Positions 1-25,348 are shown, counted from the stretch's first letter. The stretch: DNA of 41,022 nucleotides from a virus (IMGVR_UViG_3300002772_000001:1-41022); one strand, 5' to 3'. A program made the numbers and translations. The notes: a model not told the origin generated them from the letters alone.

Positions 1-39
1 GCCCTCGTAGCTCAGTTGGATAGAGCGGCCCCCTCCTAA
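1..39 (+). repeat. attL core: copy of the 5' half of tRNA-Arg(CCU); not a complete tRNA
   Basis: Parses as gccctcg/ta/gctc/agttggata/gagc/g/gcccc/ctcctaa: acceptor 5' strand, D arm, anticodon-stem 5' strand, then a 7-nt loop with anticodon CCT. The following bases (ttgccatag...) cannot pair as the anticodon stem and there is no T arm. Confidence 0.85.
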
Positions 40-437: not shown

Positions 438-2501
438 TCAATTGCCCGGCCAATTAAGTGAACCTGACCCCTTTTCGAAGTGAACCTGACCCCGTTTTCG
501 TAGCAGTGATGCTTCATGCCGCGACCGCATCAGCGCCATTTCCAGCACGAAGCATTCATCGTAGCGCAGTCCCCATTGCTTGCCGGCAGGCATGGCAGGT
601 GCCGTCTCTATCTGTGTGACATTGCCATCGGCGTCCTCCACGGGCGTGTAAACCGCGTCGCGAGCCTCCCATTCGTCGTAGCACATCAGGCCGATTTCGA
701 AGGCGTCAATGCCGTGCTTGGCGAAGGCATCATGGACTCGTTGCGCCATCGTGCCGACGTGCCACCGTGCCTTTTCGCCCTTCGCGGCGACAGCTTCCTT
801 GAACTTGAATCTGTACCACTCAACTTCCGCCCATGCATCCAGCCATGCCTGTGGGATTGGCTCGATCTGCTCCTTCTGTGTTTCGTCAGAGGTATTGATC
901 GTGGCGGTGCCGGCATAGACAACATTCCAGCGTTGTCCCGACGATCCGAGCGAAATGGTGTTATCAGCGGCGGGTCGAAATGAAGACGCCGTGACCTGCG
1001 CTATCGACACAGTATTCACACTGAGGTATAAAGATGATGAGCCGCCATTCAAGGTAGTAGTCGTGCCCTTATGTCCAATGCCGTAGCTAAGGTTATTTGA
1101 AGTGTCCGCAAAACAAAATGAGACAAAAGAAGCGTCAGTATTTGTCCCTCTGAACCCTCGGTTGTTTACTGTGGTTACGTATCCGGGGAAATAGTATTCG
1201 CCAGCCACTTGGCTCACGGCCATAACTGATGTAGATGAGTCATCACCATTTTTAATCAACGATTGCCCGGACGTGCTGACATCACGCAGGATGGTGTTGT
1301 TTGCATTTCCGCTATTTGTGACCGTATGCCCGTTGGCAAATACATTGCTCAGGTCAACCTTGCAGCCAGATGTGCCGGCAAGGAATGTCAGGTTAATGGC
1401 GTCGAACTGGTTGCCAGTAAACACGGCAGATGAAAGGCCTACGGAAACGTCACCAAGGATTCGGCCACCGATAATCTTACCGCCGTTAGTTCCGAGAGGC
1501 CCGGTGCCTTTTTGGATGGTCAACTTTCCATATTGGCCGCCTCGGACTGTCTGAGAGCCGCAGTCAATAAACAGTAAGCCACCTGTTTTCTGGCTTGTGT
1601 AAACATTGGACAAGTCGTGATACAGCGTTGCGGTTCCGGAAACGCCAATCTCAATGTCATAGCCTGTGGCTGTAGCGTCGGTCGTTTGGTAAATGTCGCT
1701 GTGGTCTGTGATATGGAAACCACTACCCGTTGCCTTTACGGCACGCCCGTAAGCCCAGCGTGACCCACAGTTGACCATGCCGCATTGGTTGCCAGAGAAT
1801 GTGACATTATGCCCAGTGAGGGTTGGAGCTGCTGCGTCGCCGTAGAAGTTGATGTTGATGAGCTGCACATTATTGCCAGTAGACGCCAGAATGGGGCCAT
1901 TGTCGTTCTTGGTAATGCGTGCAATGCCGCCAGAGCTTGATAATGTCTGTAGGTTATTCGATTGTGAAAGATTATTTGCGTTGTAATGTAGGCCAATGAA
2001 ATCAATATTGAAGCCCGTGTTGATAGCGGTCTGAATTGCTGCGGTATGGTCCATGACTGGAGCGCCGGATAAGACATCCGCCTTCATCACGGCGTTCATG
2101 TAATCCAGGGGCGTTACACGTTCGCGAGCCTTGTCTTGCAGTAAGCCGGGCACCGCGCCTGCACCGGCCTGAAGGAAGCCGACGAGGGATGCCCCCTAGT
2201 TTGCTCCGGTGCCCGCAAGATCAGACAGGTCGGCACCAGCGGATACATTGTCTCGCGTCCAGATGGTGGATCCGCCTGAATCCTTCAGAGCGTAGCGATA
2301 CTGCTACGGCAAAAGGTATATGATGGCCTCGCCGCGCGCATCTAGCACGATGGGGTTAGTATTGGCAACAGACCCAGCCTTGTCGGTGTACGTGGCAAGG
2401 GGCGTCGTGGTCCCAGTGGCGTAGGTGTATAGGAAGCATCCTGCCGCGGGAGAGCCCGCATTGAAGAACTGCTGTTTTGCCGAAGGAGAGAGCGAAGCCA
2501 T
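438..2501 (-). CDS. Tailspike/tail fiber with C-terminal peptidase S74 intramolecular-chaperone domain (687 aa; needs read-through of 2 in-frame TAG)
   Basis: Fragments 2304-2501 and 438-2153 plus the unlisted segment between them share one frame. They are joined by TAG at 2304-2306 and 2196-2198. N-terminus is MASLSPSAKQQFFNAGSPAAG..LYTYATGTTTP, and the neck motif GASLVGFLQAGAGAV..QDKARERVTPLDY spans the joins. The C-terminus SDETQKEQIEPI...WHVGTMAQRVHDAF looks S74-like. True stop is TGA 438-440. Confidence 0.85.
456..500. repeat. Tandem direct repeat, 22 + 23 bp (aagtgaacctgacccc(g)ttttcg)
   Basis: Copy 1 at 456-477 and copy 2 at 478-500 differ by one inserted g. The repeat lies in the last codons of the tailspike ORF. 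Confidence 0.9.
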
Positions 2502-2718
2502 GTGTTACCCCAAGAAGGTCTGGATGTTGTTTTCGGTATTGATCGGCGTGGCGATGGCCTCACCAGCTTATGCCGCCACCGCATATTGGACGGGCCAGCA
2601 GGAACAGGTTCAGACGGTTACTGGAAAGTTTGTCTGGCGCTGTTACTACAATTACAACGGACAGGTTTTCTCGCGACTCTTTGAAACGTCGTGCGCGTCA
2701 AGTGTCGAGGTTGAGTGA
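2500..2718 (+). CDS. Small secreted protein (72 aa, signal peptide), antisense to the virion operon (moron-like)
   Basis: ATG 2500 with AGGAG at 2484-2488. N-terminus MCYPKKVWMLFSVLIGVAMASPAYA/ATAY is a typical Sec signal with an AxA site. Stop TGA 2716-2718. No TAG. Confidence 0.6.
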   Translation: MCYPKKVWMLFSVLIGVAMASPAYAATAYWTGQQEQVQTVTGKFVWRCYYNYNGQVFSRLFETSCASSVEVE

Positions 2719-2960
2719 TGCTTATTGAAAACAGCGCGGCTGTACGGATGGCAATGTCGGTGGTGATTTACCCCGCCGCAGCCTTTGTGCTGTACGGATC
2801 AGCCCGGATCATCGCCATGGTGCTTGTTCGCGTGCTTCCAGACTCGAAGCTAAAGCGGAAGTTATTTACCGACACCGACACCGGCTTGCTGGCCTACAAA
2901 CCCGGTGTACGGGGCAAGAGATCGCTCAAAGGCAGCTCGCTGCGCCACGGGGATTCGTGA
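2715..2960 (+). CDS. Small membrane protein (81 aa), translationally coupled to the preceding plus-strand ORF
   Basis: ATGA-type overlap with 2500-2718. Hydrophobic stretch VVIYPAAAFVLYGSARIIAMVLV. The 3' end overlaps the convergent minus-strand gene by about 100 nt, so the end is uncertain. Confidence 0.4.
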   Translation: MMLIENSAAVRMAMSVVIYPAAAFVLYGSARIIAMVLVRVLPDSKLKRKLFTDTDTGLLAYKPGVRGKRSLKGSSLRHGDS

Positions 2961-4901
2961 CAGGATCTTTTGTGATGCTGGGCTGGCTGGATTAAGCATG
3001 AGCTGGGCCAGCTTGCCGCGAATCTCGTCCGGTGCACCGAATAGCTTGTAAGCGGCATCCAAGGGCTGCACAAGCCGCGAGATGATTCCGCTACCCTGCA
3101 GATTAAGACCAGTCGATTTCGACACCTCGCCAAGTAGCGATTGCGAGGCAAGGTTCTGCACGGTGTTGGAGCCCGCTGAACGTCCAGCGGTTTCCGATGC
3201 GGCTTTCTTGCTTAGGTCACCGCCCACTGCATGCAATACCTGCAATTGGTCGGGGCTGAATACGCCCTCTGCCGTGGCGCCCTTATAACCCGTTGCCTTC
3301 TGGGCAATGTCGTCCAGCTTATTAAGGTTGCCCATGTAGCGGGCCGGCGTGAGCGTGGGATTGCCAAGCGCATCCGCCACGGGAGACCCGGCCTTGTCGA
3401 GAAACGCCTATCCGGTCTGCATCTGATTCACGGGGCCGCTCATCTACTGATAAGCGTCTTTCGCTTGGGCGTACTCCGGTGAAACCTTCTCGAGCTCGCC
3501 AAGCAATTGTTGCTTCGTTCCCTGCAGGGCAGCCTACTGGTTACGGCCAAGCGCGGTCGCGGCATTCGGCTGCATCATGTCATCAAGAGCCAGCTTGACG
3601 TAATGAAGGCCACGCACGGATGTCAATGGATTATCGAGACTCTCGCCCTGCTCTAGCGCGAGCTTTTTGGCTAGCGCCGATGCCTGCTGAATTCCTGGAC
3701 GCGAAGACAGCTGCCTAAGCCCGTCAGACGGAAGTAGCATGTTGTCGCGCACGGCATTGGCGGCGTCAACCGTACTCGGCTCATTGCGGAAAAGACCACC
3801 GTATTTTTGAAGCTCAGCCTCCTTGGCCTGGTCTGCCGCATTCTTTGCTGCGGCTATCCTGGCCACATCAGTTTCTCCGGCCTAGCCATAAAGCTGATTC
3901 GCCGCCCCCTGTCTGGCGGCGATTGCGCCGTCCAGATCGCTTGGCGTTCCCGCCACACCGCGCACGGCACCAACCCGCGCCGCGTTGTTGTCGAGCCCGC
4001 GCTGCACAAACTGATTCAGCGTGCCATCTGCCGCGCCAGCATCGGTCACAGCGCGTTGCAGCTGGCCGATACCAGCATTCCCCGTGGCCTCGGCTAAGGT
4101 CGGCTGAACCCCTGGCACGGCGCTCGCCTATGGCGCCATATTGCCGCCTTGGCCGAATCGGCTGATGGTGTTCGCAATGATGCGGGACTGCCCGCTATCG
4201 GTCAGCGGATCAACGAGGCTGCGCAGAGTGCGCGCACCAGCGCCAACGACAGCTGGAATGGCCTGACCTACGACGCCAGCACCAGCGCCAACGCCCGCAT
4301 TAAGGAGGCGCTGCCCTTGGCCTTGCGTGTTATCCAGTGGCTGCACAGCGCCCTGAGCGGCACCGGCAAGCGCGGCACCACGGTAGGTCTGCGGCACCAT
4401 CGAATCAATGACGCCAGCCCCCTTGAGCGCAGCACCAGCACCGATCGCCTGCATGGCTTGGCCGGAGATATTGCCCGCAATACCCGCCTTGGTTGCCATC
4501 AGCGGGGCGTCAGTGGCGTTCGCATCGGTCTACGCCTGCCGCAGTGAGGTGTCAGCTGCCCTAGCCTGATCGCCAATCACGTTTGGCACGCCCGCGACCT
4601 ACGTCAGCACATCTTCCGGCGAAAACACCATCTTGCCGATATTCGCCGCCGCCTACCCTGCGCCACGTAGGTTATCCATGACGGATTTTCCCATGCCGGC
4701 GAAGTAGTTCTGGACATTTGAGCCAAGCCCATCCTGCGGCTTGTCATCAAGCCCGACCAGATTGGTCAAGCCCGCCTTGCGGTAGAAGTCCTGCGCCGGC
4801 ATGTCAGCGTAATACTTCGTCCGAATCGCAGCCGCAAGTTTCCCATCTGGAACATCGGCGTACTGCGGGTACTTCTGGCGGAAGTCGTCGAGGACCGTCA
4901 T
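2862..4901 (-). CDS. Large internal virion/ejection-type protein (679 aa; 8 in-frame TAG)
   Basis: Fragments 4653-4901, 4128-4499, 3882-4118, 3534-3866 and 2862-3380 are in one frame. They are separated only by TAG at 4653, 4599, 4530, 4128, 3882, 3534, 3444 and 3408 (plus-strand 'cta' starts). ATG 4901 overlaps the upstream TGA (ATGA). Stop TAA 2862-2864. Gly/Ala/Gln-rich. Function is inferred from size and position only. Confidence 0.7.
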
Positions 4902-6841
4902 TTCAGAAGCCCGAGCGGGTCATTGTCATCGGCAGTTGGCGTGGCCTGCTGAGTTGCACCTGTCGCACTCGGCTTGTAACCGAGCGTCGTCGATGGTGCG
5001 CCGAGGTCAGCATAGGACTGTTTTGCGGTGTCCATGAGATTGCGGTATTTCTTCTGCGAGGCTGCAGTGAGCAGCGACGTTCCTGGCGAGTTATTGCCAA
5101 GGATCTGATCCCGCTTGCTTTGCAATTGATCCATTTTCTGCCGCATGAAGTCGGCCAGTGTGGCAATTGCTGTTGCGCGCTGCTGCGGCGGTGCGTTCGG
5201 GCTGAGGTTGGCAATCATCTGGCTCGTCTCGCCCTCGGTCGCCACGCCAGACTTGATCATCTTCTGAATTTCAGCCGATGCCAACGCAACGCCATTGTTG
5301 TAAGCCTTTAACGCATTGCCTGTAGCGGTGTCAAAATGCGAATTGACCGCGTTTTCAGCGGCGTTGAAAAACCCATTGTTCTGTGGCAGTTTTTTCGAGT
5401 CTTCCAGCAAGTCAGACAAGTGACTGAGCGCCGTATTCGCCGCCACAATGCTGCCGCCCGTGGAGGTAGAGGCATTGCTGGCAAGGTCTGCCATGAACTT
5501 CTGATTCTGCGCGTACTGCGGAACGTTAAGGTCTGGATTGATCGCCTAGGCCCGGGCAAGAATCTCCTGATTGGCGGGAGTCTGCATGAAGCGGGAGCTG
5601 ACCGGCAGCTTGTAGGATGCAATGCCCTGCGCGATGCTTTCACGGGACGGAGGCAACGGTTGATCGGAGGTGTCGTCACCGGGCATCTTGCCGCTCAACA
5701 TGTAGTTGCGTTTCTGCGAGTCGGTCAGCGCGATCCCTTGCGTGGCAAATCCCGCCAGATCGGCGGCGCGCTTCGTCGCGACATCTTCGCCACCACTCTT
5801 TGCTGGCGGCATCACGCGACCACTCGGCGCCCCACCATTGGCCCGAGCCAGCACGGATGGAACATAGTTCTGCGTCTCGGAAGGCAACTGCATAAGAGCC
5901 TGTACCGGATCGCCGCCAGCCTTGGACAGCGCCTGATCAACACGTCCCGGCCCGGCGTTGTAGGCCGCCAAGGCAAGCTGCGTGTTCCCGCCATACTTGT
6001 TCGTCATGGCGTTAAGGTAGTCGTTACCCACGCGCATATTCTCTTGCGGCGAGCCGTCCTGAACTGGCTGTATGCCATAGCCAGGATTGGCGGCAGTGGA
6101 CGGCATGAGCTGCATCAAGCCCTGCGCACCAGCCGGGCTCGCGGCATTGGGATTGCCGCCAGACTCCTGCTGCATGACGGCGTTCGATAGACTGCCCGGA
6201 ACGCCCTGCTGAGGCGCAGCTTGCGGAGCCGCCTAGCCGCCCGCGTAGTTGACGGGCTGTGCCGATCCGTCGCGCGGATTGAAGGCGGCATAGCCTTGGT
6301 CCGTTTTGATCGCAGTGAAGTTCGGCGCCTTGTCAGGAACGGATATTTTCAGCTTGCCGTCTGGGCCATAGACCTGATCGCCAGCATGGTAAACGGCGTC
6401 ATCCTTCTTGGTTTGTGGTGCCACAGTGTCAGCAATCTGCTTCATGTGCGGCAGCATGGACGGATCGAGCTGCGCTGGAAGATTCGGGCCAAGCACCTTC
6501 TGTGCTTGTGGGTAAATCGTCTGATACAGGCTCGCAGCACCCTGCATATCGCCAGTGCTGGCCATATTCGTAATCATGCGAGCGTACTGGCCGACGCGCT
6601 GTAGATCGGCATCCTATAGCGATGCTGCCTGAGCCTGCTACTGCTGGCCGATCTGCTGAATCTTTATGCCAGCATCCGAATCAGCGCCATAAATCTGCGA
6701 CAGCGCGGCCTAATCTCCACCGAGAGCCGGCTGGGCATACTGTGCCAGCGTTTTACGGGTGCGCGTCGCCTGACCATCCTTGATGCCGGACTGCATGGCG
6801 TCGTACATGTTGGGCATCATGAGCTGGCCGATGTATCCCAT
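4898..6841 (-). CDS. Internal virion protein with lytic transglycosylase (SLT/GH23) domain (647 aa; 5 in-frame TAG)
   Basis: ATG 6841 with GGGGAG 9 nt upstream. Fragments 6233-6577, 5546-6175 and 4898-5494 are in one frame. TAG at 6710, 6638, 6614, 6233 and 5546. SLT motifs: ESGGNPNA..GAQGLMQLMPSTA...LALAAYNAGPGRV. Stop TGA 4898-4900. Confidence 0.85.
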
Positions 6842-6898
6842 TAGATATGGCTCCCCATAAATCCGAAGGTGATATTGCGAGGATTATTCACATCAACC

Positions 6899-7918
6899 TC
6901 AGAATGAAATCTTGGGCGGGGCATATTGGCCGGCATCGGGAATTGGCGGTATATAGTTGCTGCCGTAGGGGTTGTTAATGTTGCTGTTCCATTGACTCTG
7001 ACCGTAAGCGTTGCCGATACCCTGCATGGCCTGCTGGCCAAAGTTCGACCACGCGTTAGCGCTGCCATAGATGCCTTGTGCGCGGGCCTGTCCGGCGTTC
7101 TGCAGATTGGCGCCCACCTGGTTGGCCGTATTCATGCCTAGCTGACCTGTCGTGTTGGCGCTGGTCTGCGCCATGCCGCTAAGCGAGGCGAGCCGGTTCA
7201 TGTATGGCGTATAGCCCTACTGGTCGGCGTAGTTCTGGCCGTATTGCGTCAGTGCCTTGAGCGTAGCTCCGGAGTTCAAGCCGCCGCGTGCGGCAGCGCT
7301 TGCCTGTACGGCCTTGTTGCCTTCATCCAGACCGAACTGGTAGCCCGGCGCGGCACGGAATGCAGAGAACGCATCCTGCTACGCTTGCGAGCCACTCACG
7401 GATGGATTCGACCCACCGCCAAGCGTTATGGGCGCTCCGGTTTCATGACCCACTGCGCCAACGCCGCCAGACCCCATGGAGGCGGAAATGTCGCCATTGA
7501 TCTTGTTCTGATCGGAGCCGCTCCAATAGCCTGTATTCCACTGCTTCTGATGCGCGGCCAGCTCGCTATCCCACGCCTGCCGATAGGCCGGGTTGCTCGA
7601 ATAGAGTTGCGCATTGGCAACGGGTATGCCCTGATCGTTGGTGGATACATATGGCAAGCCACCGCCTGACCCGGAATAGGGCTGACCCGACGAGCCGTTA
7701 CCTATGCCCAGCATATTCATGTACTGGTTCAGGCCAACCAAGCCGGCCTGACGAAACGGCGCCTAATCCTGACGCGACTGGTTGAACATCTGAAGCTGCG
7801 TCTGATTGGCCTGGTTGGCCGCGCCAGCCTGCGTATTTGCGGCGCTTTGGGCTGCATCTGACTACTAGCTTGCCGAATAAAGGCCAACTACGGCTGCGGC
7901 TGCGACTCCCCAAGGCAT
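6899..7918 (-). CDS. Gln/Asn/Gly-rich virion protein (339 aa; 5 in-frame TAG including an adjacent TAG-TAG pair)
   Basis: ATG 7918 preceded by AGGAGAG. TAG at 7865, 7862, 7763, 7379 and 7217. Listed fragments 7379-7741 and 6899-7201 are in frame. Stop TGA 6899-6901. Confidence 0.75.
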
Positions 7919-7919
7919 G

Positions 7920-8093
7920 TCAGCTCTCCTTCACAACGTTTCGGCGTATGTCGATCATCTAAAGCGCCATGTCACGGCATTCCTCAATCGTCAATTTTCG
8001 ATGTTCCTTGGTGCCCGCGCCCGGATGTACCTGCATTGAAGCCAAGGATGCGAAATACATATCAAACGGAATGCGTTCGTCCTCGTGCAGCAT
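7920..8093 (-). CDS. Small hypothetical protein (57 aa; 1 in-frame TAG)
   Basis: ATG 8093 overlaps the upstream TAA (TAATG). TAG at 7959-7961. Read-through ends at TGA 7920-7922, just before the next ATG (7918). Confidence 0.45.
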
Positions 8094-8674
8094 TAGTCGT
8101 TTCTCCGAACACAGATAATCAAGGTAATCCGTTCTTCGTCACTGTTATTAGTGACCCAGTGCAGTAGCGAGTTGTCGAACGTATAAATATCGCCAGGCTC
8201 CGGGCTGAGGCTTTCATCCTCGAAGCAAAATGCCTGATCCTTGTTCCCTTTGACCTGCACGGCGAACTTTTCGTAATGCCTCGCGTGCCAGCCAGTATCT
8301 ATGTGCGGCTTTACCCCGCCACCCGGAGGAATGCGGGTGATGAGTACGCCACCAAGCTGTTTTCCGCCAACTCGGCGCACCACATGACGGGCCAGCGACC
8401 ACGCGGCAGGAATCTTCCCGATTACGGGATACCAAACTGACGTATGGGCATCGTTGAAGGATTCGCGGTCGCCCTTGAAGTTGGCCCAGTCGTTGTACCG
8501 CACCCAAATGTCATCTATCGACTTGTGGGGCGTGTCGTATGCTTCCGTTCGCTGCGTATGTGTGTTCCACACTTCCGGGTGGTCGGCGATCTGTGAAACA
8601 AGCCGGCTCACGTCAAGCCCTGAACCAAGTCTACGAATAGACATGCCTTGCGTCATCGGCTCACAGGTTGTCAT
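8093..8674 (-). CDS. Aspartyl/asparaginyl beta-hydroxylase-like cupin/2OG-Fe(II) oxygenase (193 aa, TAG-free)
   Basis: Uninterrupted ORF. Metal-site context KPHIDTGWHARH ... LLHWVTN and overall family resemblance, by eye. Stop TAA. Confidence 0.6.
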   Translation of the reverse strand: MTTCEPMTQGMSIRRLGSGLDVSRLVSQIADHPEVWNTHTQRTEAYDTPHKSIDDIWVRYNDWANFKGDRESFNDAHTSVWYPVIGKIPAAWSLARHVVRRVGGKQLGGVLITRIPPGGGVKPHIDTGWHARHYEKFAVQVKGNKDQAFCFEDESLSPEPGDIYTFDNSLLHWVTNNSDEERITLIICVRRND

Positions 8675-9143
8675 TGATCGTCTTCGGGTTGAACCGTGGC
8701 AGCGGGGCGATCTGCGCGGCGCCCGACAAGCTATTGTTCTGCGCTACTTGCGTCTGCGCGTTCACCGTGTCGGTGATGGCAGAAACTTGCTGACCCGCTG
8801 CCTGCAGCCCGGTCTGCACGTCAAGCACCTGCGTCTAAGTGTTGGCCGTCTGCGTGATGACTTGAGGCACGGTTGGCGCATCAATGCCGCCGAGCCGGGT
8901 TTCCGCAATTTCCATAAAGAATTTGTACCAAACCGGCATCATGCGGCCAGAATCATCAAGCACGGCAACCTGCGCCCCGGGGAGCCAATTAACCCGTTTG
9001 CGAAGGCTGTTCGAACCGGCCCACGTTACCCTTCCGGTGGCTGAGCCAATGCCCGCCACTGTGCGGGCTGACGCCGTGAAGGAGATGAATGGCGAGCTGG
9101 CACTGGATACGCCAGCGACCGTTGCGCATGATGCCGTTGCCAT
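8661..9143 (-). CDS. Virion-associated hypothetical protein (160 aa; 1 in-frame TAG)
   Basis: ATG 9143 overlaps the upstream TAA. TAG at 8835-8837 in the context TQTANT[TAG]TQVLDVQTG. Stop TGA 8661-8663 overlaps the next gene's start region. Confidence 0.65.
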
Positions 9144-9721
9144 TAGTCAGGCAGGCCCAGTGTCCAACTTCCGATGACGTGTGACCCGGCAGACGGATAG
9201 CTCTGCTCGAGAATGGAGGACACTACCAGTGCCGAGCCGCCGCCCGTTGTCACACTGATCGGCGCTCCGCCACTGGTAGCGGCCACTTGAAACGTGTCCG
9301 TGGTGACGTTTACTGCAAAATAGGTCGTGCCCTCGGTCAGCCCCGTTGGCATCGTGTCACCATAGATCACGATAGTGCCATTCGTTGAAAAGCCGTGACC
9401 GGGACAGGTGAATACGCCCGTAGTGACGTTGGCGATGAACTCTTTCGGATTGCTTGCGTTCGGCGCATAGCCGACGTAGGTTGCGCCGTTCCACAATCCA
9501 AGCCATTTGACGGTTGTTCCGGCTGGAATAGCAAAAGTCACTGCCGAGGATAGCGTGCGAACTGCGCCTGAGGATGCACCGAAGGTCGCGGCCATCTTGG
9601 CATACGTGCCGCCGGTAACCTCATTGGCTCCGGTGGCTCCGGGGAATGCCGTGTGCGCACTGATCTAGGTGATCGTCAGTGCGTTGAGCATGGTGTCTTT
9701 TGAGGCGGTGACAAAGCTCAT
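9143..9721 (-). CDS. Virion-associated hypothetical protein (192 aa; 1 in-frame TAG)
   Basis: ATG 9721 overlaps the upstream TGA (ATGA). TAG at 9665-9667 (codon 19). The N-terminus MSFVTASKDTMLNALTIT[TAG]ISAHTAFPGATGANEV continues into listed ORF 9143-9595. Confidence 0.7.
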
Positions 9722-11130
9722 TTGCTGCTCGCTGTAGCGTCAAGGTTGGCACCGTACACCGCGATCTTCACGGGTTCGGTTGTGCGGATGCGGTAGACGC
9801 GGCGGCGGGACAATCCAAGGCGCCTAGCCACGCCACGGTTGCGATAGGCGCCAATCTGGCCTATGCGAACTTCGCGACTGTTACTGAAGTTTCGGCAACC
9901 GTCATCCGACCAGTCCAGCATCCATAGAGGATCGGCACCCGGTGTTGGCGGCGTGATCCCGTCAAGTCCAACGCCCATCTCGGCAATGATTTCAAGCCGG
10001 CTATGTCGGAGCCACTTATTCTCGTTCTCGATAACGGCCCACGCCCTCTCACGGGTGATCGAATTTCCGTTATCGGTGAAGGCATTCAGGTCCAGCACGT
10101 ATAGGTTGCCGCTGACGTAATCGCCGAGCACGTGCTGGCCGCCGAGGAACATGTAGGCGTTTCCGCGGTGCTGTTCCTGTGCGCCCGTGATTGGGTTGCG
10201 ATAGGTCAGCTGCGTCCAGCGACGCGACGCGGCATCAAACGCCCACGTGGCATACCCAGGAAACGTCAGCACATAGAGCGTATGCCCGTTCTGCTGGTAG
10301 CAGTAGCCCCATGCGCCAGAAACGTCGCCATAGCCCGCGATGGCGTTTTCCAGAGCATGCGTGGAGATGCGCGTCGGGCTGTACCCTTGGGCCATATAAA
10401 CCATGCCGATGCCGCTATCGTTCTGACTGAGCCAAAACACGGTGGAGTCGGACTTGGCGGGGGAGTATTTGGCCGCGCAGCCATATTCCATGATGGCGGT
10501 TCGCACAAAGACGAGATCCTTGTCGCCCGAAGTCTGCGCAATCTCCGTTGTCGTGGTGTTGAACAGCCACAGCTCGCGGTGATCAGATAGCACCGAAACG
10601 ATGGGGTCAGGATTAGCCTCGGAACTGGCAAAGTTCAGTGCATCAAGGGTGGTTGCATCGCCGATGTTCGTCCAGCCGTAAGTGCCATTCGTGTTGGGGA
10701 AGATGATGTAACTGTCTTGATACGTGCCCTGCGCTGTCGTCGGAGCGCCCGTAACCGACACATAGGCCAGTGTCGAGAAGGTCAGAACATGCCATCCCGC
10801 TGAATGCATGACGGCGAGCTGCGTGTCGTTGTAAACAAGGCTTACACGCCCCGCCCCAGGAACGGCGCCGATCAGCGTTGAAACGCCAGCCGTCGTGACC
10901 TGATATAGCGAAGCACCCGAGACGACCCAGCCAAACCCATTGGCCGTTTCCGCCGCACGGATCGGGCCTGTGCCGATGGTGGACAGCAGCCGCAGACCCG
11001 GCGCTCCGTAGAACATGCCCTCTTCGGACGACCCCGGAGGCGCGCCCTCAAAAAACAGGTTGACCAGCGTCTAGCCGGCCAATGGGAGCGATCGCGACTG
11101 ATAGGCCGCGCCAAGGAAATCAGTCTTCAC
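9718..11130 (-). CDS. Large virion protein, possibly a head-completion/DNA-stabilisation (P22 gp10-type) protein (470 aa; 1 in-frame TAG)
   Basis: GTG 11130 overlaps the upstream TGA (GTGA). TAG at 11071-11073 in AAYQSRSLPLAG[TAG]TLVNLFFEG, then the listed 432-aa ORF. The family assignment is from memory only. Confidence 0.55.
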
Positions 11131-11777
11131 CGAGCAACCTGCGTCAATCGCGAGCCGCGCGTGAAGCGCTGGCGCTCGTTGGACAACGCGGCCATCAGAC
11201 GGCCCGCATATTGAGACTTCCAGAGCGGCAGGCGACCGTCTTCACCGATGAATGGGGCTGACTCGGCCAGCGCGGCATAGAGCCACACATCCGGATAGCG
11301 GTTGAACGCAGCGTTCAGCGTGCCGGAAGAAATGTCGGGCGCCTTCTTGTAATACCGGCCAGCGATGACCGTGCCATCTGTCATTGTCGGGAAGAACAAC
11401 AGGTTCAAGCCCTGCTGCGTGTACTTGCGGGCCGATCCGGAGCCGCCGCCCGCCTTGAGCAAGCGCAACTGGCCTTCTTCGGCGACGTAATCCATCGGGT
11501 AATCGCCCGATACCTGCACGCGGATTAGCTCAAGGCAGTCGGTGGGAAGTGGCGCGACGTTGCCAGTGGCCGTGATGGCGAGCGGCGCCTCCATTTCGGC
11601 ACAGCGCAGCGGCGGAAGTACGCTCTGCACGCCGGTCATGCCGTAATAGACAGCCTGCTCGCCCATGCTGATCAGCAGATCCAGCGTGGACTAGCTCAGG
11701 GCGCCAGCATTCGTGTCGTCGCCGTCGATCATCTTCAGCACGGCGGTACGAAAGTCGGTATAGGTCGTGAAGTTCAT
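11127..11777 (-). CDS. Head-tail connector/completion-type hypothetical protein (216 aa; 1 in-frame TAG)
   Basis: ATG 11777 overlaps the upstream TGA. TAG at 11691-11693 (codon 29). The frame continues into ORF 11127-11666. Confidence 0.65.
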
Positions 11778-12067
11778 CAGACACGGCCCCGTGAGACGCG
11801 GAAGCCCGACAGGGCTGGATCGTTCAACATGCGGTTGGCGTGCACGGGGTTACGGATGAACTCCGCAAAGCTGACGCCATTATCGTTGCAGTATTGCTGG
11901 ATGATGATGTCGGGTATCTTGGCAAGCACCCGCATTTCACTATCGCCCGTCAGGCCGGCGCTCTAAAGCGCCCTGCAATGATCGGCAATAGCATGGAGAT
12001 CATCCATGTTGGCTTCGTAGACGTGAGCCTCATGTGTGGCGCTCACTTCCTCGATACGTGCCCGCAT
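11777..12067 (-). CDS. Small hypothetical head protein (96 aa; 1 in-frame TAG)
   Basis: ATG 12067 with AAGGAG 7 nt upstream. TAG at 11963-11965 (codon 35). Stop TGA 11777-11779 overlaps the next ATG. Confidence 0.65.
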
Positions 12068-12078
12068 GTCATCTCCTT

Positions 12079-12111
12079 GAATAAAGAGGGGCCGCTATGC
12101 CAGCCGGCCCC
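12079..12111 (-). terminator. Intrinsic terminator-like hairpin after the capsid gene
   Basis: On the minus strand, a 7-bp GC stem (ggggccg/cggcccc, plus-strand 12088-12094 and 12105-12111) with a 10-nt loop, followed by UCUUUAUUC. Confidence 0.6.
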
Positions 12112-12118
12112 GGGTTCA

Positions 12119-13090
12119 TCAGCTCAGGTCAAGAATCGACGCGAGCGGCTTCTCGTCACGCACCACCAGCGTGACTTCGGTACGAATCTGCCACTGCTTG
12201 GCATCGCCCGTGGTCGCCATCTGCTCCGACTCGAACGGGCGCAACTGACCGAGGGCCAGCTTGTCCGTGTCGATCAGGTAGGCCGAAGCCGTCAAGCCCA
12301 GTCCGCCCGACGCCATCACGCGGTCAGGAACCACCTTCGTGACGCCGAAGTCATGGCCGTAGAAGGTGAACGCGGTGTTCAGCACCAAGCTGCCATCCGC
12401 CTTGCTGGACGGCACGGTCTGCTGCCGGGTCACGTTGCCGGTCAGTGCTGATACCTTCTACTTCTGCGCCGGAGGAACCAGCAGCATGGTCGAGTCACCA
12501 CCATTCTGGTACGCGGCCAGCACCGCAGCCTTCACCAGAACGTCGGAGATGGCACGGGCCGTACCTGCCACCGGAGCCGTGTTGGTGACCGGGTTCGGAG
12601 CCACGCCAGCGCCCGCACCCACGCTGGCGTTCAGCGCAATGAAGCCGTACAGGCCGCGCATCTGGCCTGCAACGCCCGAAGTGCCAGTGACGGCAGCGCC
12701 GTTGCCGATGGCTGCCGCCTCGATGTCGCGACGAAGCTCAACCATCTTCTTCGCTTTCAAGCGATTGATTTCGGACGATCGGCCGTATTTCTTCACCGTC
12801 TCGGCGGTGTTGGACACGCTCAAGGTGTCCTGGAAGATCTGCGTGCGGTTGTTCAGCGGGCCGGGCTGGGTCTGCGCGGCGTAAGCGGCGTCGGCGCCTT
12901 CAATCGCAGCATTCGCGGCGTTGGTGGCGCGGTAGCTGTCACGGGTCCACTCGTGGAACACGTTCGACACCTTGATGCGGTCGATGGCACTGACCAGCGG
13001 GGTGTCCTACGGGTTGAAGTTGTAGATGCGGTCTTCCACATCCTCCGCCACACGGACGATGGACGGGGTAATCAGGGTGTTCGCAGTCAT
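12119..13090 (-). CDS. Major capsid protein (323 aa; 2 in-frame TAG)
   Basis: ATG 13090 with AAGGAAAAG upstream. TAG at 13007-13009 (NFNP[TAG]DTPLVSAI) and 12458-12460 (PPAQK[TAG]KVSALTG). These join ORFs 12458-12970 and 12119-12433. Lies downstream of the scaffold and is followed by a terminator hairpin. Stop TGA. Confidence 0.75.
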
Positions 13091-13099
13091 GTCTTTTCC

Positions 13100-14026
13100 T
13101 TAACCTAGCAAGTTGCCGAGGGATTGAAGGCTCTGTTTCGCATCGAAGCGTTTGAACGCCTCGGACTTGCTCACAGTCGCCCTGTTGGGTTGGTTTGCCG
13201 CCGATGGCTTAGCCACCCTTGGCAGTTGCGCAACGGGCTTGAGCGCGGCTGTTTTAGCCTGCAACTCGTCGTAGGCTTTTGCCTTAGCGGCAATCTCCCA
13301 CAAGCCTTTCTGCACATAACCGATGTCTGCGGTCTTGGGGCTGATGCCAGCCTTGCCAAGATATGCCGCCAGATCGTCGATTGTTTTCTCACCAAAACCC
13401 GGCAGGGTGTCCTTCAGCGCCTTCTCGGTAGCATCGGCTTGCTGAGCAATCCACGCTTGGCGTTGCCGCTGCGTTTCCTGCTGAACATTCGCGATGGCCT
13501 CATGTGCTGCGTTCAACTGGCCCTTGCGTGTTTCGTATTGCTCCTTCTGTGCGATGTACAGCCCCACGTCCTGTGAGGCCAATTCAACAGACGGTGGTGC
13601 GCCGATCTGCGATTCCGCAAACTTGGCGAACGCGTTCAGACGGTCAAGGGTCGCCGTCAACGCCCTTTCATTGTGCTGGCGGTATTCGTCGGCCTGTGCC
13701 TGCAGCGCCTCGACGTGCCTGCGCTCCTCCGCGACAGCCATCGTTTTCTGCGAGTAGTCGAAGCCCTTCTGAGCCAGCTCGATAACCTCGGACTTCTTGA
13801 GCGGAACGTCCTTGCCATCATGCTTAAGCACAATGGTGGCATCGTCGCCCTTGTCGCCCTCGGCCTATTCCTGACCCTCTTCGGTTTCCTCCCGCTCCTC
13901 GGCTTCCTCGCCTTCCTATTCCTGCTCAAGCTCCGGCTCAGCTTCCTGATCCGCGCCGTCCATCAGACCAGCCAGACCCGAAAGCGTATCGCCCTCGGCT
14001 GGCTGCATTTCTGCGTCACCTGCCAT
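13100..14026 (-). CDS. Scaffolding protein (308 aa; 2 in-frame TAG)
   Basis: ATG 14026. Acidic N-terminus with TAG at 13916-13918 (ELEQE[TAG]EGEE) and 13865-13867 (EEGQE[TAG]AEGD). Then a long Q/A/E-rich helical ORF (13100-13831). Sits between portal and capsid. Stop TAA. Confidence 0.7.
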
Positions 14027-14164
14027 GTTGTATACCTCGTTGGTGGAATGAATCTGCGGTGGCCGGCGCTGATCTCCGGCATGATGGCACTACTCCGTTG
14101 CCTCTGACCTAGCCAGCTAGAGAGGGACTTAGCGCATCAGTCGGCGCGTTCACCGCAAAACTTG

Positions 14165-14398
14165 TTACCCGATCGCCGCATTGATGACGTTGATCAGGCT
14201 CGTTACTGCCTCCTCTGGTGTCTTGCCAATTCCGCAGAACTCGCCGCTAGCCTCACCAAGCCGCACCAGGCCGGATTCGTTACCTATTTCAGCGCACCAA
14301 CTCGGCGCGGATTGGTCGCCGTCGAACGATAGGGCGAACTCCTTGTCGCGCGGCTTGATTTCAATGGCAAGTTCAATAAGTTTTGACAGGTTACTCAT
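14165..14398 (-). CDS. Hypothetical protein (77 aa, TAG-free)
   Basis: Complete ORF. ATG 14398 overlaps the upstream TGA (ATGA). Stop TAA. Confidence 0.55.
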   Translation of the reverse strand: MSNLSKLIELAIEIKPRDKEFALSFDGDQSAPSWCAEIGNESGLVRLGEASGEFCGIGKTPEEAVTSLINVINAAIG

Positions 14399-14676
14399 CG
14401 CCGAAACACTCCCTTGAACCGTTCAGCGCGTGATTGCTCAGCCTCGATGGCCTTGCTCTGCATCTTGCCGGTGATCATCGTCTGTTCCAGCACGTCACCA
14501 AGCCGTTTATGGCACTGGATCATGCGCCAGAGGTGATCGCGCTTCGCCTCGTCCGCTTCGATCTGCCAGCGAGCCAGGATTTCATCCTTGAGCTGCGCCA
14601 TCGTCTCGATATAGACGCGGTTTGACAGTACATCGGCGGCGAGTTGACCGCGTTCAAGCTCTTCCTATGGGGTCAT
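14395..14676 (-). CDS. Hypothetical protein (93 aa; TAG at codon 4)
   Basis: ATG 14676 overlaps TGA 14673-14675 of the read-through portal (ATGA). TAG at 14665-14667. The frame continues into ORF 14395-14601. Confidence 0.6.
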
Positions 14677-16904
14677 TCATTCTCGCCCTATTGTTCGCCC
14701 TTCGTGGCGGCCTGCAATTCGGCAATCTGCTGCTGCAACTGCGCAATCTGCTCGTTCTGCTGAGCGTCGATGTCCTTGTGCGCCATATCGTGCGCGGTGG
14801 CGACGCCGTGAATATGCGTGTCGTGCGCTTTGCGCTGAACATCAGCGGCCTTGACCCCGATATTTCCCTGATCGGCCTGCGCCTTGACTCCGAGTGAGGC
14901 CATCGCATGCTGGTGTTTCTGATCCGCCTCACGCGCCCGCTGCTGCAATTCCATCTGCTTGAGGTACGTGTCCGACTGCTGCTGCGCGCTCATCTGCTTG
15001 AGCTGGCCGTTTTCTTGACCGAGTTGTTCCAGCTGCTGCTTGGTCTGCGCCATTTCCTGCTGTTGCTGCTGTTGCTGAGCCTGATACGCCTGCGGGTTCG
15101 GCGGCATACCTGACGGCTGCGGACTAACGAAGCGTTCCGGTTCCTTGAACTCGGCGGCCTGCACGTACAGTTTGACGGTTTCGGCCACCTGAGCTGGCGT
15201 GACGATGCCGAACGGGGCAGCTTGCATCTGCACCTGCATCAGGCCCATGACGCGCGCGGCAAGTTGTTCCTTGCTGCCCGTTCCCAAGCCGACCTTGATC
15301 GTAGTGTTGAACTGGTCTTTCCACTCGGACGGATTCACAGCGACCCACGACCCGTTGACCTGCATCTGTTCGGTCTTGTCCTGGAACTGGATCGCCAGCT
15401 TCAGCATCTTGCTGAAAAGCCCCTTCATGCCGACCGCGAACATGCGCGACATCAGCTCAAGGCGCATGTCTGCCTTTTGCGTGATGATGCTGACGCCGGT
15501 CGCGGTCTTGTTTAGCGAGTTGGCGTCGGTGCCCTGCGAATAGCGCGTGAAGCCGGTGCGGTTCTCTTTCCATCCCTCAAGCCATTCGTTGAACTCGTAG
15601 GCGGGAGCGCCGAGAGCGGGCTGTACGATGGGCTGAATGGCGGTGTTGGCCGGACCGTGGCCGCGCACCGCGCCACCAGGCCGATTCTCCAGCCAGTCGT
15701 CCATGTTCACGCCAGCATCCAGGTTGATGTAGGTCCGCTGATTGACGGACAGCATCATATTGTCTTGGATAGCGCGGATGACGTTGGTGCGCAGCTTCTG
15801 TGGCTGCAACGCCATGTCGGCAGGGCAGTCGCCGAAGAACGCATGCGGACGAGGAATGGGGCATATCCACACGAACGGATGGCCGTCGCACTTTTCGTAC
15901 TCGACCAGCTTCTGCTCGATCATGTGGCAGCACAGCCATTCGGCAATGCCGTCGCCGTCCGCGTCCAGCTTGATATAGACCTCGCTGCACTGATACAGCT
16001 TGTGGCTTTCGTGCGGCTCAACAGCCGTGTAGTCGCTGTTCAGGCCAAGCTAGGCAAGCGTTTCGCTGTCGTAGCGCGAGTTGCTGCCGGCCTGCCCGAT
16101 GTCGGTCAGGTCGTAACCCTCTTCCTCTAGCTCAAACTTTCGCTTCGGGTAGACGTGGGCAATCATCGCCGGATCGTCACCCCAGCGCGCATTCGCATCC
16201 ACGCGCACTTCGTGAGGGGCGCATGCGGCCACCTTCACCGCCATGCGTTTATCTTCCTTCTTGAGCGATACCGTCAGCGTCGGTGCGGCGGGCTGCTGCG
16301 GTAGCGGCTGTCCATCCGGGCCATACTGCGCTGGCATGGTCTGTGACGGCTCAACCTGAGGTTCGTCGTCAAGCTCCCAGCCCGACTACTGAAGCATCGC
16401 CACCTGCTCCTGCGTGATGCCGGAATAGGTAGTTTGCAGATCCTCGAATTCCTCCTCGGCCCACACCTTGACGAAGCCGACCTTCTGGATCAGTGAATCC
16501 TTGAACCAGTCGTACATGATGCCTACACCGTCGTTGCGGGTGTAGAACAGGTAATTAACGTAAGCCGTGGCGAGCTGGGCAACCTGATCCTGATCGGGTC
16601 GGCGCGCCTGGAACTCGACCGCCTCGTCATCCGTCACAAACGGCTTCATGATCTGCGGCAACATCGCCTCGATCGTGTCAGCCACGTCGGTCGCTACGAA
16701 ATCGCTGCGGTCGTCAATCTCTGGCGGGGCTAGTTCGCCAGTAGCTTCGGCGTTGTAATATTCAAGGTTGCGAAGACGCTGCTAGGCAATCTCGGTGCCC
16801 GGACCGCCCATGCTGTTTTCCAGCGCCATGCGGCAGGCAAGCTCGACCTCAGCATCCGTCATCTTGGCGTGCTTGATTGACGCCTTCTTGGACGTGTATG
16901 CCAT
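14673..16904 (-). CDS. Portal protein (743 aa; 4 in-frame TAG)
   Basis: ATG 16904 overlaps the terL TAA. Fragments 16386-16685, 16050-16337 and 14688-15923 share one frame. TAG at 16782, 16386, 16050 and 14688. Motifs RLRNLEYYNAE, DADGDGIAEW and YSQGTDANSLNKTATG, plus a poly-Q coiled-coil tail. Real stop TGA 14673-14675. Confidence 0.85.
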
Positions 16905-18154
16905 TAGCGGGTAAGCCTGCGGTAGCTGATTGGTTGCATATCTTCGTTAACCATCTTGGGCGCCACACTTGCCATGTAGCGGAACATATCGGCGCCGTGA
17001 CTCCACTCGTCGTGGACGGGTGCGCCAGGCTCGCCCGTTGAAACAGGAACGCCGCGCTTGTACCGCTTGAGGCACTGAATCAGCCGCTCGCACTTGAGCT
17101 TGTCGATGTAGAGCTGGCCGAACGCCATGCGTGCCGCCTTAATGCCTGTCTCGACCGGCTGAATCGGAACGATTCCCACATCCCAGCCAAGCTCGCGCAT
17201 GATCTGCTCGGCACTCTTGCCGGTCTTGTAGTCACCGTGGGCGCCGTCGTGAGGTAGCCAGAGACGGCCCCAGTTGAGGTTCTTCTGTTTCAGCTCAGCC
17301 GAACACCAGTCGAGCGTCTTGTGGTCAACCTCGATGTACTTGATCAGCCGAAGCGACGAGATATGCCGCTGGCATAGGCCAATCGCCATCTTGTCGTTCC
17401 AGCCCAAGTCGAAAATGACGTGAACCTTGAGCGCCGGGTCATACGGGAATAGGCCAATGCGCCCCTCTTCCTGCGCCCTGGCAATCTCGTCAGCGTAGAT
17501 CGCGCCAGTCACGGCAGGCTTGCAGCGTCCTTCCCATATGTTGTCGTAGTCAGCCCTTGGTGTCGTGGCGAGCGCGTGTTGCCGCTCAGCCTCAAGCACA
17601 TCAGGGAACCACGGGTTGTCCGCGTAATTGATCTGCACCACCACGGAATCAGGGGGCGGATTCTCGATGAAACGGACGTAGGTTTCGTCGGTGTCCAGCT
17701 CGGGGTTTAGCGTGATGGTGATTCGCGACCCGTCTTTGCGGATCGTCGGGATAAGAATGTCCCACGATCGTTTGCTGATCGCCTGGGCTTCCTCGGCCCA
17801 AACGTCATCAACACCCTCGAACGACTTGATCGACTCGGCGGTCTGGTCGCTTAGGCCGGAAAATAGAAACTCGGTTCCGTTCGCGCCCTTGATGATGTTC
17901 TGCTGGACTTCGTAGAACGCGCCAAGGCCCATGGATTGAATCTGGTCACTCAGGAGCTTGTGCACGGAATCGCGGATGGACTTCTGCACCTCGCGAGTGC
18001 ACAGAAATCGTCTTTTCGACTAAGCGCCCCGGATCAGGTAGGAGCGAGCAACACCCCACGACTTAGCACCACCGCGGCCACCATGCAGGATCGTGTATCG
18101 CTGTGGGCCAAACAAGCACTGCAGCTTGGCGGGGAACTCAATCTGGCTTGACAA
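16904..18154 (-). CDS. terL: Terminase large subunit (about 416 aa; 1 in-frame TAG; start uncertain)
   Basis: Walker A in ILHGGRGGAKSWG, upstream of TAG 18020-18022, then LCTREVQKSIRDSVHKLL and the listed 361-aa ORF with nuclease-domain motifs (WSHGADMFRY). The only in-frame start after the upstream TGA (18158-18160) is TTG 18154. Confidence 0.85.
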
Positions 18155-18404
18155 AGGTCACCGTCAGGCTGGTCTTGAGTGGGTTGTCAGGATCGCCAGA
18201 CACCGTCATCGGCAGAACCTTGCCAACCAGCGTAAGGAACGCGTTCGGGTTGGTCTGCGCCTAGGTCAGCAGATACTTGGCTCCGCCCGCCTTGTCGAGT
18301 GCCGTCAGGATCATGGCCTTTACGTCAGCCGTCACCTTATTCGGTACGCCTTTTGGCCTACCCTTGCCTGCATTTCCCCTATTCGCGCCTACTTTGGGTT
18401 CCAC
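18138..18404 (-). CDS. terS: Terminase small subunit-like protein (88 aa; 1 in-frame TAG)
   Basis: GTG 18404 with GAGGAAAG 4-6 nt upstream. Motif GRPKGVPNK...ALDKAGGAKYLLT[TAG]AQTNPNAFLTLVGKVLP is of the kind seen in small terminases. TAG at 18261-18263. Stop TGA 18138-18140 overlaps terL. Confidence 0.6.
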
Positions 18405-18499
18405 GGACTTTCCTCGGGCTGCTTACGCGTCACCCATCATTGCTACGGATGCTTCTATCTCAGACCACGGTATGTGGCTTCAGTCATCGTCTTCACTGT

Positions 18500-18570
18500 T
18501 GGCGGGGGCGGACGGAATCGAACCGTCATAAGGCGGGTTAGAGCCGCTGTCAGCACCCAAGCGCGCCCCA
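18500..18570 (-). tRNA. Amber-suppressor tRNA, anticodon CUA (reads UAG); Gln/Trp-like acceptor stem, encoded CCA
   Basis: Minus-strand sequence UGGGGCG-CGCUUGGGUGCUGAC-AGCGG-CUCUAAC-CCGCC-UUAU-GACGG-UUCGAUU-CCGUC-CGCCCCC-G-CCA. The T arm is canonical (GGUUCGAUUCC). The anticodon stem has 4 bp plus an A.C pair. The 7-nt loop has U33, CUA (plus-strand 18539-18541) and A37. The acceptor stem has 6 GC pairs plus U1.C72, and the discriminator is G73. The D region is only 15 nt and I could not draw a canonical D stem. Confidence 0.8.
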
Positions 18571-18759: not shown

Positions 18760-19028
18760 GGCTGCAGCCCCTTTATCCTTGCCAGCTTGTCGTTTGAAGC
18801 GCCTAGGCATGCCTTGAGATGTATCGCGTACTCGACCAGTGAGCCGTTCGTCAGCTCGCTAGGCAACGCAACCGTGCAAACCTTTACTAGCTCGGCAGGC
18901 AAGGCAACGTAGACCGGAACCTTGACCTCGACCGTCTCAGTCCTGATTGCCGGTTTCGCGCAAGCGGCCAGCGACAACAGCAGGGACGCGAGTATTAGCC
19001 CACGCTTTGACAGTCGGCTCGCGCTCAT
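18756..19028 (-). CDS. Rz1: o-spanin (Rz1-like outer-membrane lipoprotein, 90 aa)
   Basis: Lipobox LSLAAC after a signal sequence. The start lies inside the 3' end of the i-spanin gene in another frame (overlapped architecture). TAG-free. Confidence 0.7.
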   Translation of the reverse strand: MSASRLSKRGLILASLLLSLAACAKPAIRTETVEVKVPVYVALPAELVKVCTVALPSELTNGSLVEYAIHLKACLGASNDKLARIKGLQP

Positions 19029-20032: not shown

Positions 20033-20035
20033 GGG

Positions 20036-20302: not shown

Positions 20303-20305
20303 GGT

Positions 20306-20515: not shown

Positions 20516-20602
20516 TGGTTAGGCGTCCGTAGACTTCTTGGTAACGGCGGAATCAGCGACGTTTGAGCCGAAGTACAGGCCCAGCGTCCATGTTAAATAG
20601 CT

Positions 20603-23885: not shown

Positions 23886-23894
23886 GAATAATCC

Positions 23895-25345: not shown

Positions 25346-25348
25346 GTT

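Follow-up and report, generated by a model that had tools for sequence, protein, structure and literature searches.

The question raised by the locus described here is as which amino acid the codon TAG is read. The locus is a DNA stretch of 41,022 nucleotides (nt) with a GC content of 58% (the window; virus IMGVR_UViG_3300002772_000001), in which the virion genes on the minus strand carry in-frame TAG codons and are preceded by a gene for a suppressor tRNA with the anticodon CUA, tRNA(CUA). An earlier note on this DNA had proposed that TAG is decoded as glutamine (Gln), leaving room for glutamate (Glu) or tryptophan (Trp). Based on the results presented below, the window is interpreted as a temperate, podovirus-like prophage of Lysobacterales using phage genetic code 15, in which TAG would be translated as Gln by means of a tRNA(CUA) charged by the glutaminyl-tRNA synthetase (GlnRS) of the host; a probability of about 0.82 is assigned to this reading. 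Judged from its sequence, the window carries the characters of the code 15 phage class. TAG-to-Gln recoding is already known from gut phages, and the window represents a new example, not a new principle.

With TAG taken as a sense codon, the minus strand between positions 438 and 18422 represents a continuous set of 16 virion genes. The corresponding open reading frames (ORFs) contain 40 TAG codons, three of them upstream of likely start codons, which leaves the 37 sites counted in the earlier note; one of these (12095-12097) is doubtful, as it may also precede a start codon. Within the 5657 codons of this late module, 36 in-frame TAG and neither TAA nor TGA codons were counted, and no in-frame TAG was found in the 5425 codons of 28 non-late genes (Fisher's test against Gln codon counts, p = 1e-6). 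TAG is present in 15 of the 16 genes downstream of the tRNA gene and in none of the same-strand genes upstream of it (18937-31301, minus strand), all of which terminate at TGA or TAA. The tRNA gene marks the exact boundary between TAG-free and TAG-bearing genes. These results confirm that TAG-only interruptions are confined to the late module, and the early genes and the integrase gene are compatible with the standard code. Moreover, the Gln-rich or polar surroundings that the earlier note had quoted for TAG (SAS[TAG][TAG]SDAAQ, GQQ[TAG]QAQ, RNQ[TAG]AALQ, ADQ[TAG]G, EIA[TAG]QRL and EQE[TAG]EGE) were all located in the translated ORFs, although the argument drawn from them is weak by itself.

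Homologues were collected by scanning IMG/VR with the major head protein, which returned 50 related loci of 48-91% identity, and by a scan of bacterial genomes, which contributed six prophages and raised the number of related loci to 56; the window protein with eight TAG codons (2862-4919), used as query for further loci, added only six. Sixteen window proteins, with TAG represented as X, were aligned to all loci, and the likelihood of the residues opposite TAG was calculated for each candidate amino acid. Substitution frequencies were taken from the same alignments, binned by identity and anchored on curated frames. A tally over all six-frame ORFs had given tyrosine (Tyr), Trp and lysine (Lys), i.e., single-nucleotide neighbours of TAG, from off-frame alignments and was replaced. 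As a control, columns of known residue were resampled 50 times for every one of the 20 amino acids, and the true residue was recovered each time.

Over 37 columns and 659 residues, Gln was the best-fitting residue, with serine (Ser), threonine and alanine behind by 334, 362 and 384 log units, Glu by 429, Lys by 433 and Trp by 1243. Gln was thus dominant in the tally that the earlier note had named as a check, and remained first by 110 units when only relatives with the standard code were considered. Gln was called at 17 of the 37 TAG columns, compared with 63% of true Gln columns and 0-7% of the columns of other residues. Among the strongly conserved TAG columns, the conserved residue was Gln in four of four; for instance, the column at 11071-11073 holds Gln in 16 of 16 sense-codon homologues and TAG in seven relatives. 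The codons found opposite the window's TAG were mainly CAG (144), CAA (42), TAG (39) and GAG (38). In relatives of at least 80% identity, CAG or CAA accounted for 19 of 30 non-TAG partners and TGG for none; TGG is separated from TAG by a single transition, yet it was not paired with TAG in these close relatives. Furthermore, when 120 database homologues of the eight-TAG protein were evaluated as a set of their own, Gln again came first, with Glu 170 units behind, and five of the protein's eight TAG columns were dominated by Gln in homologues of at least 50% identity. The TAG columns accordingly carry a glutamine signal in homologues.

Recoding of the same kind was observed in 13 IMG/VR relatives (L001-L006, L008, L009, L011, L022, L023, L032 and L047), whose tblastn alignments contain many in-frame TAG codons, with stray TAA or TGA only where an alignment overruns the gene end. 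Loci fetched later (L051, L057, L058 and L060-L064) are recoded as well, and about 36 IMG/VR relatives use the standard code. Analysed singly, the recoded relatives gave Gln in 11 of 13 cases; the two exceptions have only six and nine columns.

The tRNA expected to read TAG is encoded at 18500-18570 on the minus strand and is the only tRNA that ARAGORN found in the window. It comprises 71 nt including the encoded CCA. At its acceptor end, a U1·C72 mismatch is followed by the pairs G2-C71 and G3-C70, and the discriminator base is G73. The variable loop has 3-4 nt, the anticodon loop reads CUCUAAC, the 5-bp anticodon stem consists of 4 bp plus A·C, and the T loop UUCGAUU is canonical. The D arm is truncated: only 15 nt separate the acceptor stem from the anticodon stem, and the best model is a hairpin of 3 bp (8-10 paired with 15-17) closed by a 4-nt loop that retains GG. 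As determined previously, Gln identity is defined by U35, G73 and the 1:72 and 3:70 pairs (PMC9976931). U35, G73, a weak 1:72 pair, G2-C71 and G3-C70 are all present in the window tRNA; the acceptor-end elements had been read as a GlnRS set in the earlier note and agree with the published rules. E. coli tRNA-Trp is matched exactly at positions 2-7, their partners and G73, where the note had spoken of a close resemblance, and E. coli tRNA-Gln at positions 1-5 (both references being 100% matches to annotated genes). In agreement with the note, tRNA-Trp carrying the anticodon CUA is charged by GlnRS (PMC2965240). Likewise, amber suppressors derived from tRNA-Ser, tRNA-Asn and tRNA-Lys insert Gln once the 1:72 pair is weakened or position 73 is G (PMC9976931). 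BLAST searches with the tRNAs against GenBank phages and E. coli genomes returned only short matches that were uninformative about ancestry, both for the window tRNA (Trp or Gln) and for the class II tRNAs of relatives described below (Ser, Tyr or leucine (Leu)).

Genes for an aminoacyl-tRNA synthetase, a release factor or pyrrolysine (Pyl) functions were not detected in the 30 non-late ORFs scanned against Pfam, so the tRNA would have to be charged by an enzyme of the host. One recoded relative (L051, identical to L009) is a prophage in a 448-kb Luteibacter contig, other relatives are prophages in Aquilutibacter, Pseudoxanthomonas and Noviluteimonas, and homologues are also named in Xanthomonas genomes. 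The gene glnS is present in all Xanthomonadales (PMC3568101), and a non-discriminating glutamyl-tRNA synthetase (GluRS) is absent from Gammaproteobacteria (PMC3927822). The route to Gln-tRNA open to such hosts is therefore direct charging by GlnRS, and we infer that host GlnRS probably charges the tRNA(CUA).

Taken together, the following course is proposed. The lysogeny, replication and endolysin genes would be written in the standard code, and the virion genes would become translatable only once the tRNA(CUA) at the head of their module is made. By virtue of U35, G73, G2-C71, G3-C70 and the unpaired 1:72 position, this tRNA would serve as a substrate of host GlnRS, and TAG would be read as Gln in competition with release factor 1. 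Recoding may thus act as a gate on late-gene expression, a role that has been suggested for gut prophages (bioRxiv 10.1101/2021.08.26.457843).

Several observations weigh against this interpretation. Only 16-17 of the 37 columns are individually Gln-modal, which is somewhat under the 63% recorded for true Gln columns, and the column at 18261-18263 is Trp-modal (six Trp, four Gln, two Glu), the sole column of this type. CAG is converted to TAG by a single transition, and part of the CAG signal therefore reflects mutational proximity, not selection. The assignment of the host to Lysobacterales (Gammaproteobacteria) is deduced from the relatives. Moreover, the window tRNA is structurally abnormal: it scores below the gathering threshold of 29 bits of Rfam RF00005, its best match within the Rfam clan is tRNA-Sec (16.1 bits, E = 2), and folding of the single sequence gives no cloverleaf and is no better than for shuffled sequence (z = -0.38). 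Two elements of the E. coli Gln identity set, G36 and U38, are replaced by A36 and C38, of which A36 is unavoidable in any amber suppressor. Finally, the 10-25 pair contacted by GlnRS is not confidently placeable, the truncated D arm defeating the standard numbering.

The structural abnormality has to be seen together with further copies of the same 71-nt form. In addition to the window copy, four were found by pattern scans in diverged contigs (L058:205-275, L065:60-130, L066:823-893 and L073:889-959), giving five copies in all; among the short forms, only the window copy was searched against Rfam. Across the acceptor, anticodon and T stems, ten pairs have changed on both sides and 98.9% of cells are paired, values that none of 500 shuffles reached. 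The mismatch at 1:72 is kept in five of five copies, and the DNA flanking the other copies bears no similarity to the window. Almost no variation is seen in the D region (CGCUKGGGYGCURA), which fits the hairpin of a 3-bp stem and a 4-nt loop with no spacer after the acceptor stem, the support for this hairpin being a one-sided change from G·U to G-C only. Because its stems covary in five diverged copies, the short-form tRNA is, on this comparative evidence, a selected RNA despite its abnormality.

The alternative that survives best assumes that TAG is mostly Gln with a minority of Trp, the tRNA being a derivative of tRNA-Trp that, like E. coli su7, is still partly recognised by the tryptophanyl-tRNA synthetase (TrpRS). 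It is consistent with the acceptor stem (2-7 with 66-71) and G73, which match E. coli tRNA-Trp, with the canonical tRNA of relative L008, which is 66% identical to tRNA-Trp and 50% to tRNA-Gln, and with the Trp-modal column at 18261; G73, G2-C71 and G3-C70 count among the Trp identity elements as well (PMC9976931). However, Trp stands near the bottom of the tally and TGG is never opposite TAG in close relatives. In the tRNA, U35 stands in place of C35, a major determinant for TrpRS, and the A1-U72 pair is lost, and E. coli tRNA-Trp(CUA) loses recognition by TrpRS (PMC2965240). Such an admixture is considered unlikely. Of the two residues that the earlier note had kept in reserve, both are now disfavoured as the principal meaning of TAG, and Trp may retain a place as a minor component.

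Gln could also be reached by an indirect route, in which a non-discriminating GluRS or GluRS2 attaches Glu, which GatCAB subsequently amidates. Many bacteria make Gln-tRNA in this way, and position 1:72, at which these tRNAs are unusual, is read by the amidotransferase (PMC9976931). Nonetheless, the presumed Lysobacterales hosts have GlnRS and Gammaproteobacteria are without a non-discriminating GluRS; furthermore, GatCAB prefers a U1-A72 pair and not a mismatch, and GluRS needs a modified U34, where the window tRNA has C34. This route is therefore regarded as very unlikely.

Slightly less probable still is that TAG specifies another residue, namely Glu, Lys, Ser or Pyl, the latter being suggested by the ARAGORN label 'tRNA-Pyl'. 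Lys is modal in four columns, and the lysyl-tRNA synthetase (LysRS) can charge amber suppressors with U35; however, it requires A73 and is disfavoured by G73 (PMC9976931). Glu is modal in two columns of the scaffold gene and in one other, but the two scaffold columns sit in a low-complexity acidic stretch, and Ser, Glu and Lys all trail Gln by more than 300 log units in the tally. With tRNA-Pyl, the window tRNA has in common a small D loop, a 3-nt variable loop and G73. On the other hand, tRNA-Pyl possesses a 6-bp anticodon stem, a D stem set off from the acceptor stem by a single base, a D loop that lacks GG and an atypical T loop; this architecture is not that of the window tRNA with its 5-bp anticodon stem, its GG and its canonical T loop. 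Moreover, neither PylS nor PylBCD was detected in the 30 scanned non-late ORFs, and ARAGORN gives the Pyl label to every CUA anticodon.

The absence of any recoding, i.e., a decaying prophage with nonsense mutations and a tRNA-like pseudogene, for which the failure of the window tRNA in Rfam and the integrated state of the element (att repeats and integrase) might be cited, is a negligible prospect, as all 36-37 interruptions are TAG without TAA, TGA or frameshift, 13 diverged relatives show the same pattern with TAG at different positions, TAG aligns with Gln, and five diverged phages retain the short tRNA form, in which compensatory changes are seen.

Returning to code 15 and decoding as Gln, the suppressor tRNA itself was found to vary among the recoded phages. 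In every recoded relative that reaches the region, except L006, a tRNA(CUA) gene lies just upstream of the terminase genes, and all relatives' tRNA(CUA) at this slot combine a mismatched 1:72 position with G73. Scores of the relatives' tRNA(CUA) for Rfam RF00005 range from 41 to 54.5 bits. Among relatives whose head proteins are about 90% identical, the tRNA(CUA) gene occupying this slot differs: L002 and L032 encode a canonical 75-nt form with C1·C72, L047 a canonical form with C1·A72, and L008 (4110-4184) and others a canonical form whose acceptor stem is identical to that of the window. In the fetched 20 kb, a 94-nt class II tRNA(CUA) with a long variable arm, A1·C72 and G73 is found at L009:4572-4665 (= L051:4572-4665) and L023:4230-4323. 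The phages with this class II form also decode TAG as Gln, which leads by 129 units in L009 and by 169 in L023; their TAG columns point to Gln and not to Ser, Leu or Tyr. The earlier note had used the short variable loop to exclude descent from Leu, Ser or bacterial Tyr tRNAs. This exclusion stands for the window tRNA but does not extend to the class II relatives, which decode Gln all the same. Since they do so, Gln identity here appears to be set by the acceptor end and U35, not by a short variable loop.

The window segment 18573-18669 aligns with L002:4329-4425 and L032:1-91, the homology extending exactly to the 5' end of the tRNA gene and no further. The terminase of L002 and L032 is 93% identical to that of the window and their tRNA(CUA) only 56%, as if the tRNA gene had been exchanged precisely. 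At the syntenic site of L005 (4745-4821), ARAGORN and Rfam find no tRNA; by eye, only a degenerate candidate was recognised, with a CUCUAAA loop, a T arm, a U1·C72 mismatch, G73, CCA and an acceptor stem resembling that of L073. Furthermore, the standard-code relative L012 encodes a tRNA-Gln(UUG) beside a tRNA-Trp(CCA) (1940-2181), the former with a U1·U72 mismatch and G73, i.e., the same acceptor-end motif as the suppressors; either of these tRNAs could be a source of suppressor tRNAs. It is tentatively suggested, at somewhat less than even odds, that the suppressor slot was refilled repeatedly, with a 75-nt class I form, a 71-nt form with a miniature D arm and a 94-nt class II form, all converging on an unpaired 1:72 position with G73 and all inserting Gln.

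TAG-to-Gln decoding has been established for suppressor-tRNA phages of standard-code hosts, including prophages with a standard-code integrase (bioRxiv 10.1101/2021.08.26.457843), and phage TAG was confirmed as Gln by metaproteomics (Peters et al., PMC9523058). The comparison set consisted of the code 15 crAss-like phages and the Garnet and Topaz prophages of gut microbiomes (Borges et al.; Peters et al.). Common to these and the window are TAG as Gln, an own tRNA(CUA), a host with the standard code (which for the window is presumed), recoding concentrated in structural genes and an integrase without in-frame TAG that may end in TAG; host GlnRS was likewise proposed as the charging enzyme. In contrast, the known code 15 phages have a low GC content and infect Bacteroidota or Firmicutes, whereas the window, with its 58% GC, is attributed to a soil- or plant-associated gammaproteobacterium. 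Lysis genes are reported to be enriched for recoded codons in the gut phages, but the endolysin gene of the window is TAG-free, and the window's tRNA scaffold is unusual and differs between close relatives.

Among cellular suppressors, E. coli su7 (tRNA-Trp with the anticodon CUA, inserting mainly Gln) resembles the window tRNA in acceptor positions 2-7, G73, the CUA anticodon and the switch of identity to Gln via U35 (PMC2965240). Unlike su7, the window tRNA is natural and phage-encoded, shows a U·C mismatch in place of A1-U72 and a truncated D arm, and is only 61% identical to E. coli tRNA-Trp overall. Gln-mischarged amber suppressors made in the laboratory from tRNA-Ser, tRNA-Asn, tRNA-Lys and tRNA-Tyr, among the last the A1/G82 mutants of su3, have a weakened 1:72 pair, G73 or both. 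In the phage tRNA(CUA), including the class II form, a mismatched 1:72 position is combined with G73, changes to which laboratory selections have also led (PMC9976931); the phage genes differ in being natural and under selection, with charging that is predicted. Reduced D arms occur in animal mitochondrial tRNAs and tRNA-Pyl, which have a small D loop, a short D stem and otherwise normal arms as in the window tRNA. The latter, however, belongs to a phage of a bacterium with ordinary tRNAs and keeps GG in the D loop and the canonical T loop; homology to the mitochondrial or tRNA-Pyl families is not implied.

All genes of the late module mentioned in the following lie on the minus strand. The first one is a small ORF upstream of the large terminase gene (18138-18422) with unnamed PHROG matches only and one TAG (18261-18263). 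It is followed by genes for the terminase large subunit (16904-18157; phrog_3717, phrog_2; one TAG, 18020-18022) and the portal protein (14673-16946; phrog_1216 and tblastn matches to annotated portals; TAG at 16782, 16386, 16050 and 14688); tblastn with the portal retrieved only relatives of about 30% identity, too distant for the column tally. After a small ORF (14395-14676; one TAG, 14665-14667), the head scaffolding protein is encoded at 13100-14026 (phrog_3927), with two TAG codons (13916, 13865) in an acidic stretch and two more upstream of the likely start. The major head protein (12119-13099; phrog_1328, 56 related loci) contains two TAG codons (13007, 12458), and the small ORF at 11777-12115 one or two (11963 and, possibly before the start, 12095). 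Downstream, a virion protein to which no role was assigned (11127-11849; TAG at 11691), a connector- or head-closure-like protein (9718-11241; phrog_578; TAG at 11071) and two small virion genes (9143-9739, TAG at 9665; 8661-9146, TAG at 8835) have one TAG each. Higher numbers occur in the Gln/Asn/Gly-rich virion protein (6899-7930), with five TAG codons at 7865 and 7862 (a TAG-TAG pair), 7763, 7379 and 7217, in the internal virion or tail protein with a lytic transglycosylase domain (4898-6883; phrog_28504, phrog_2013, phrog_342), also with five, and in the large virion protein with eight (2862-4919). The module ends with a tail fibre or tail spike gene (438-2504; phrog_1171, phrog_7121; TAG at 2304 and 2196). 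The virion module, with its large terminase, portal, scaffold, major head, connector-like, transglycosylase-domain and tail fibre proteins, is podovirus-like.

Both ends of the window carry identical copies of a 39-nt direct repeat (GCCCTCGTAGCTCAGTTGGATAGAGCGGCCCCCTCCTAA), the left one (1-39) representing a putative att core and the right one (40984-41022) adjoining the gene for a tyrosine integrase (39990-41006, plus strand; PF00589), which is free of in-frame TAG and ends in TAG. The repeat resembles a tRNA-Arg(CCU) gene over the latter's 5' half, which runs from acceptor stem through anticodon loop. Repeats and adjoining integrase suggest attL and attR of a prophage inserted in a tRNA gene, and because of them the window is taken as a temperate phage that was either captured in the prophage state or cut at its att sites. 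Starting near 31.4 kb and going downwards, the minus strand carries early and replication genes (HNH endonuclease, DUF1376, Dam-type methylase, VRR-NUC nuclease, exonuclease), then the endolysin gene (21307-21771, minus strand) and a trypsin-like protease gene, the tRNA gene and the virion module. Outside the late module, stop codons are TGA or TAA, except in the integrase gene and at most three other candidate ORFs ending in TAG. Such an end was seen in the plus-strand candidates 31720-32244 and 39560-39820 and likewise in a fourth candidate, 28411-28653; should the suppressor be active late, the products of TAG-ending ORFs, the integrase included, would be extended.

The ORF at 24141-24848 matches the N-terminal domain of dATP/dGTP diphosphohydrolase (PF18909, E = 6e-8). 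This domain is presumably linked to phage DNA-base replacement pathways; partner genes for base replacement were not seen among the ORFs scanned. Close to the lysogeny end, two plus-strand accessory genes (32554-33303 and 34357-35148) were observed, one encoding a DUF7666 domain with a weak, sub-threshold match to collagen-like repeats and the other a pentapeptide-repeat protein. A near-identity DNA search of GenBank phages with the first 25 kb of the window gave no match, and a scan for promoters and terminators around the tRNA gene found nothing.

For genome annotation, the results mean that standard gene callers fragment the window and no fewer than 13 relatives, and database homologues of the eight-TAG protein are visibly truncated; code 15 restores the full virion proteins. 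TAG-to-Gln recoding would be extended from low-GC gut phages to a temperate Lysobacterales lineage of 58% GC, which does not fit the proposed route to recoding that begins from low GC (bioRxiv 10.1101/2021.08.26.457843). The window is also a clean case of the tRNA gene itself marking the border between two codes. The turnover of scaffolds and the miniature D arm, as they appear from sequence comparison, may represent the most original part of the findings. Natural tRNA(CUA) variants with one acceptor-end motif on three scaffolds would constitute a panel for studying the tolerance of GlnRS and the ribosome, and possibly a source of compact amber suppressors. If the slot was indeed refilled repeatedly, nature would have re-run the laboratory selections for mischarging with Gln, GlnRS would accept class II and truncated-D-arm tRNAs in vivo, and the truncated-D-arm form would add a new structural type to the working elongator tRNAs of bacterial systems.

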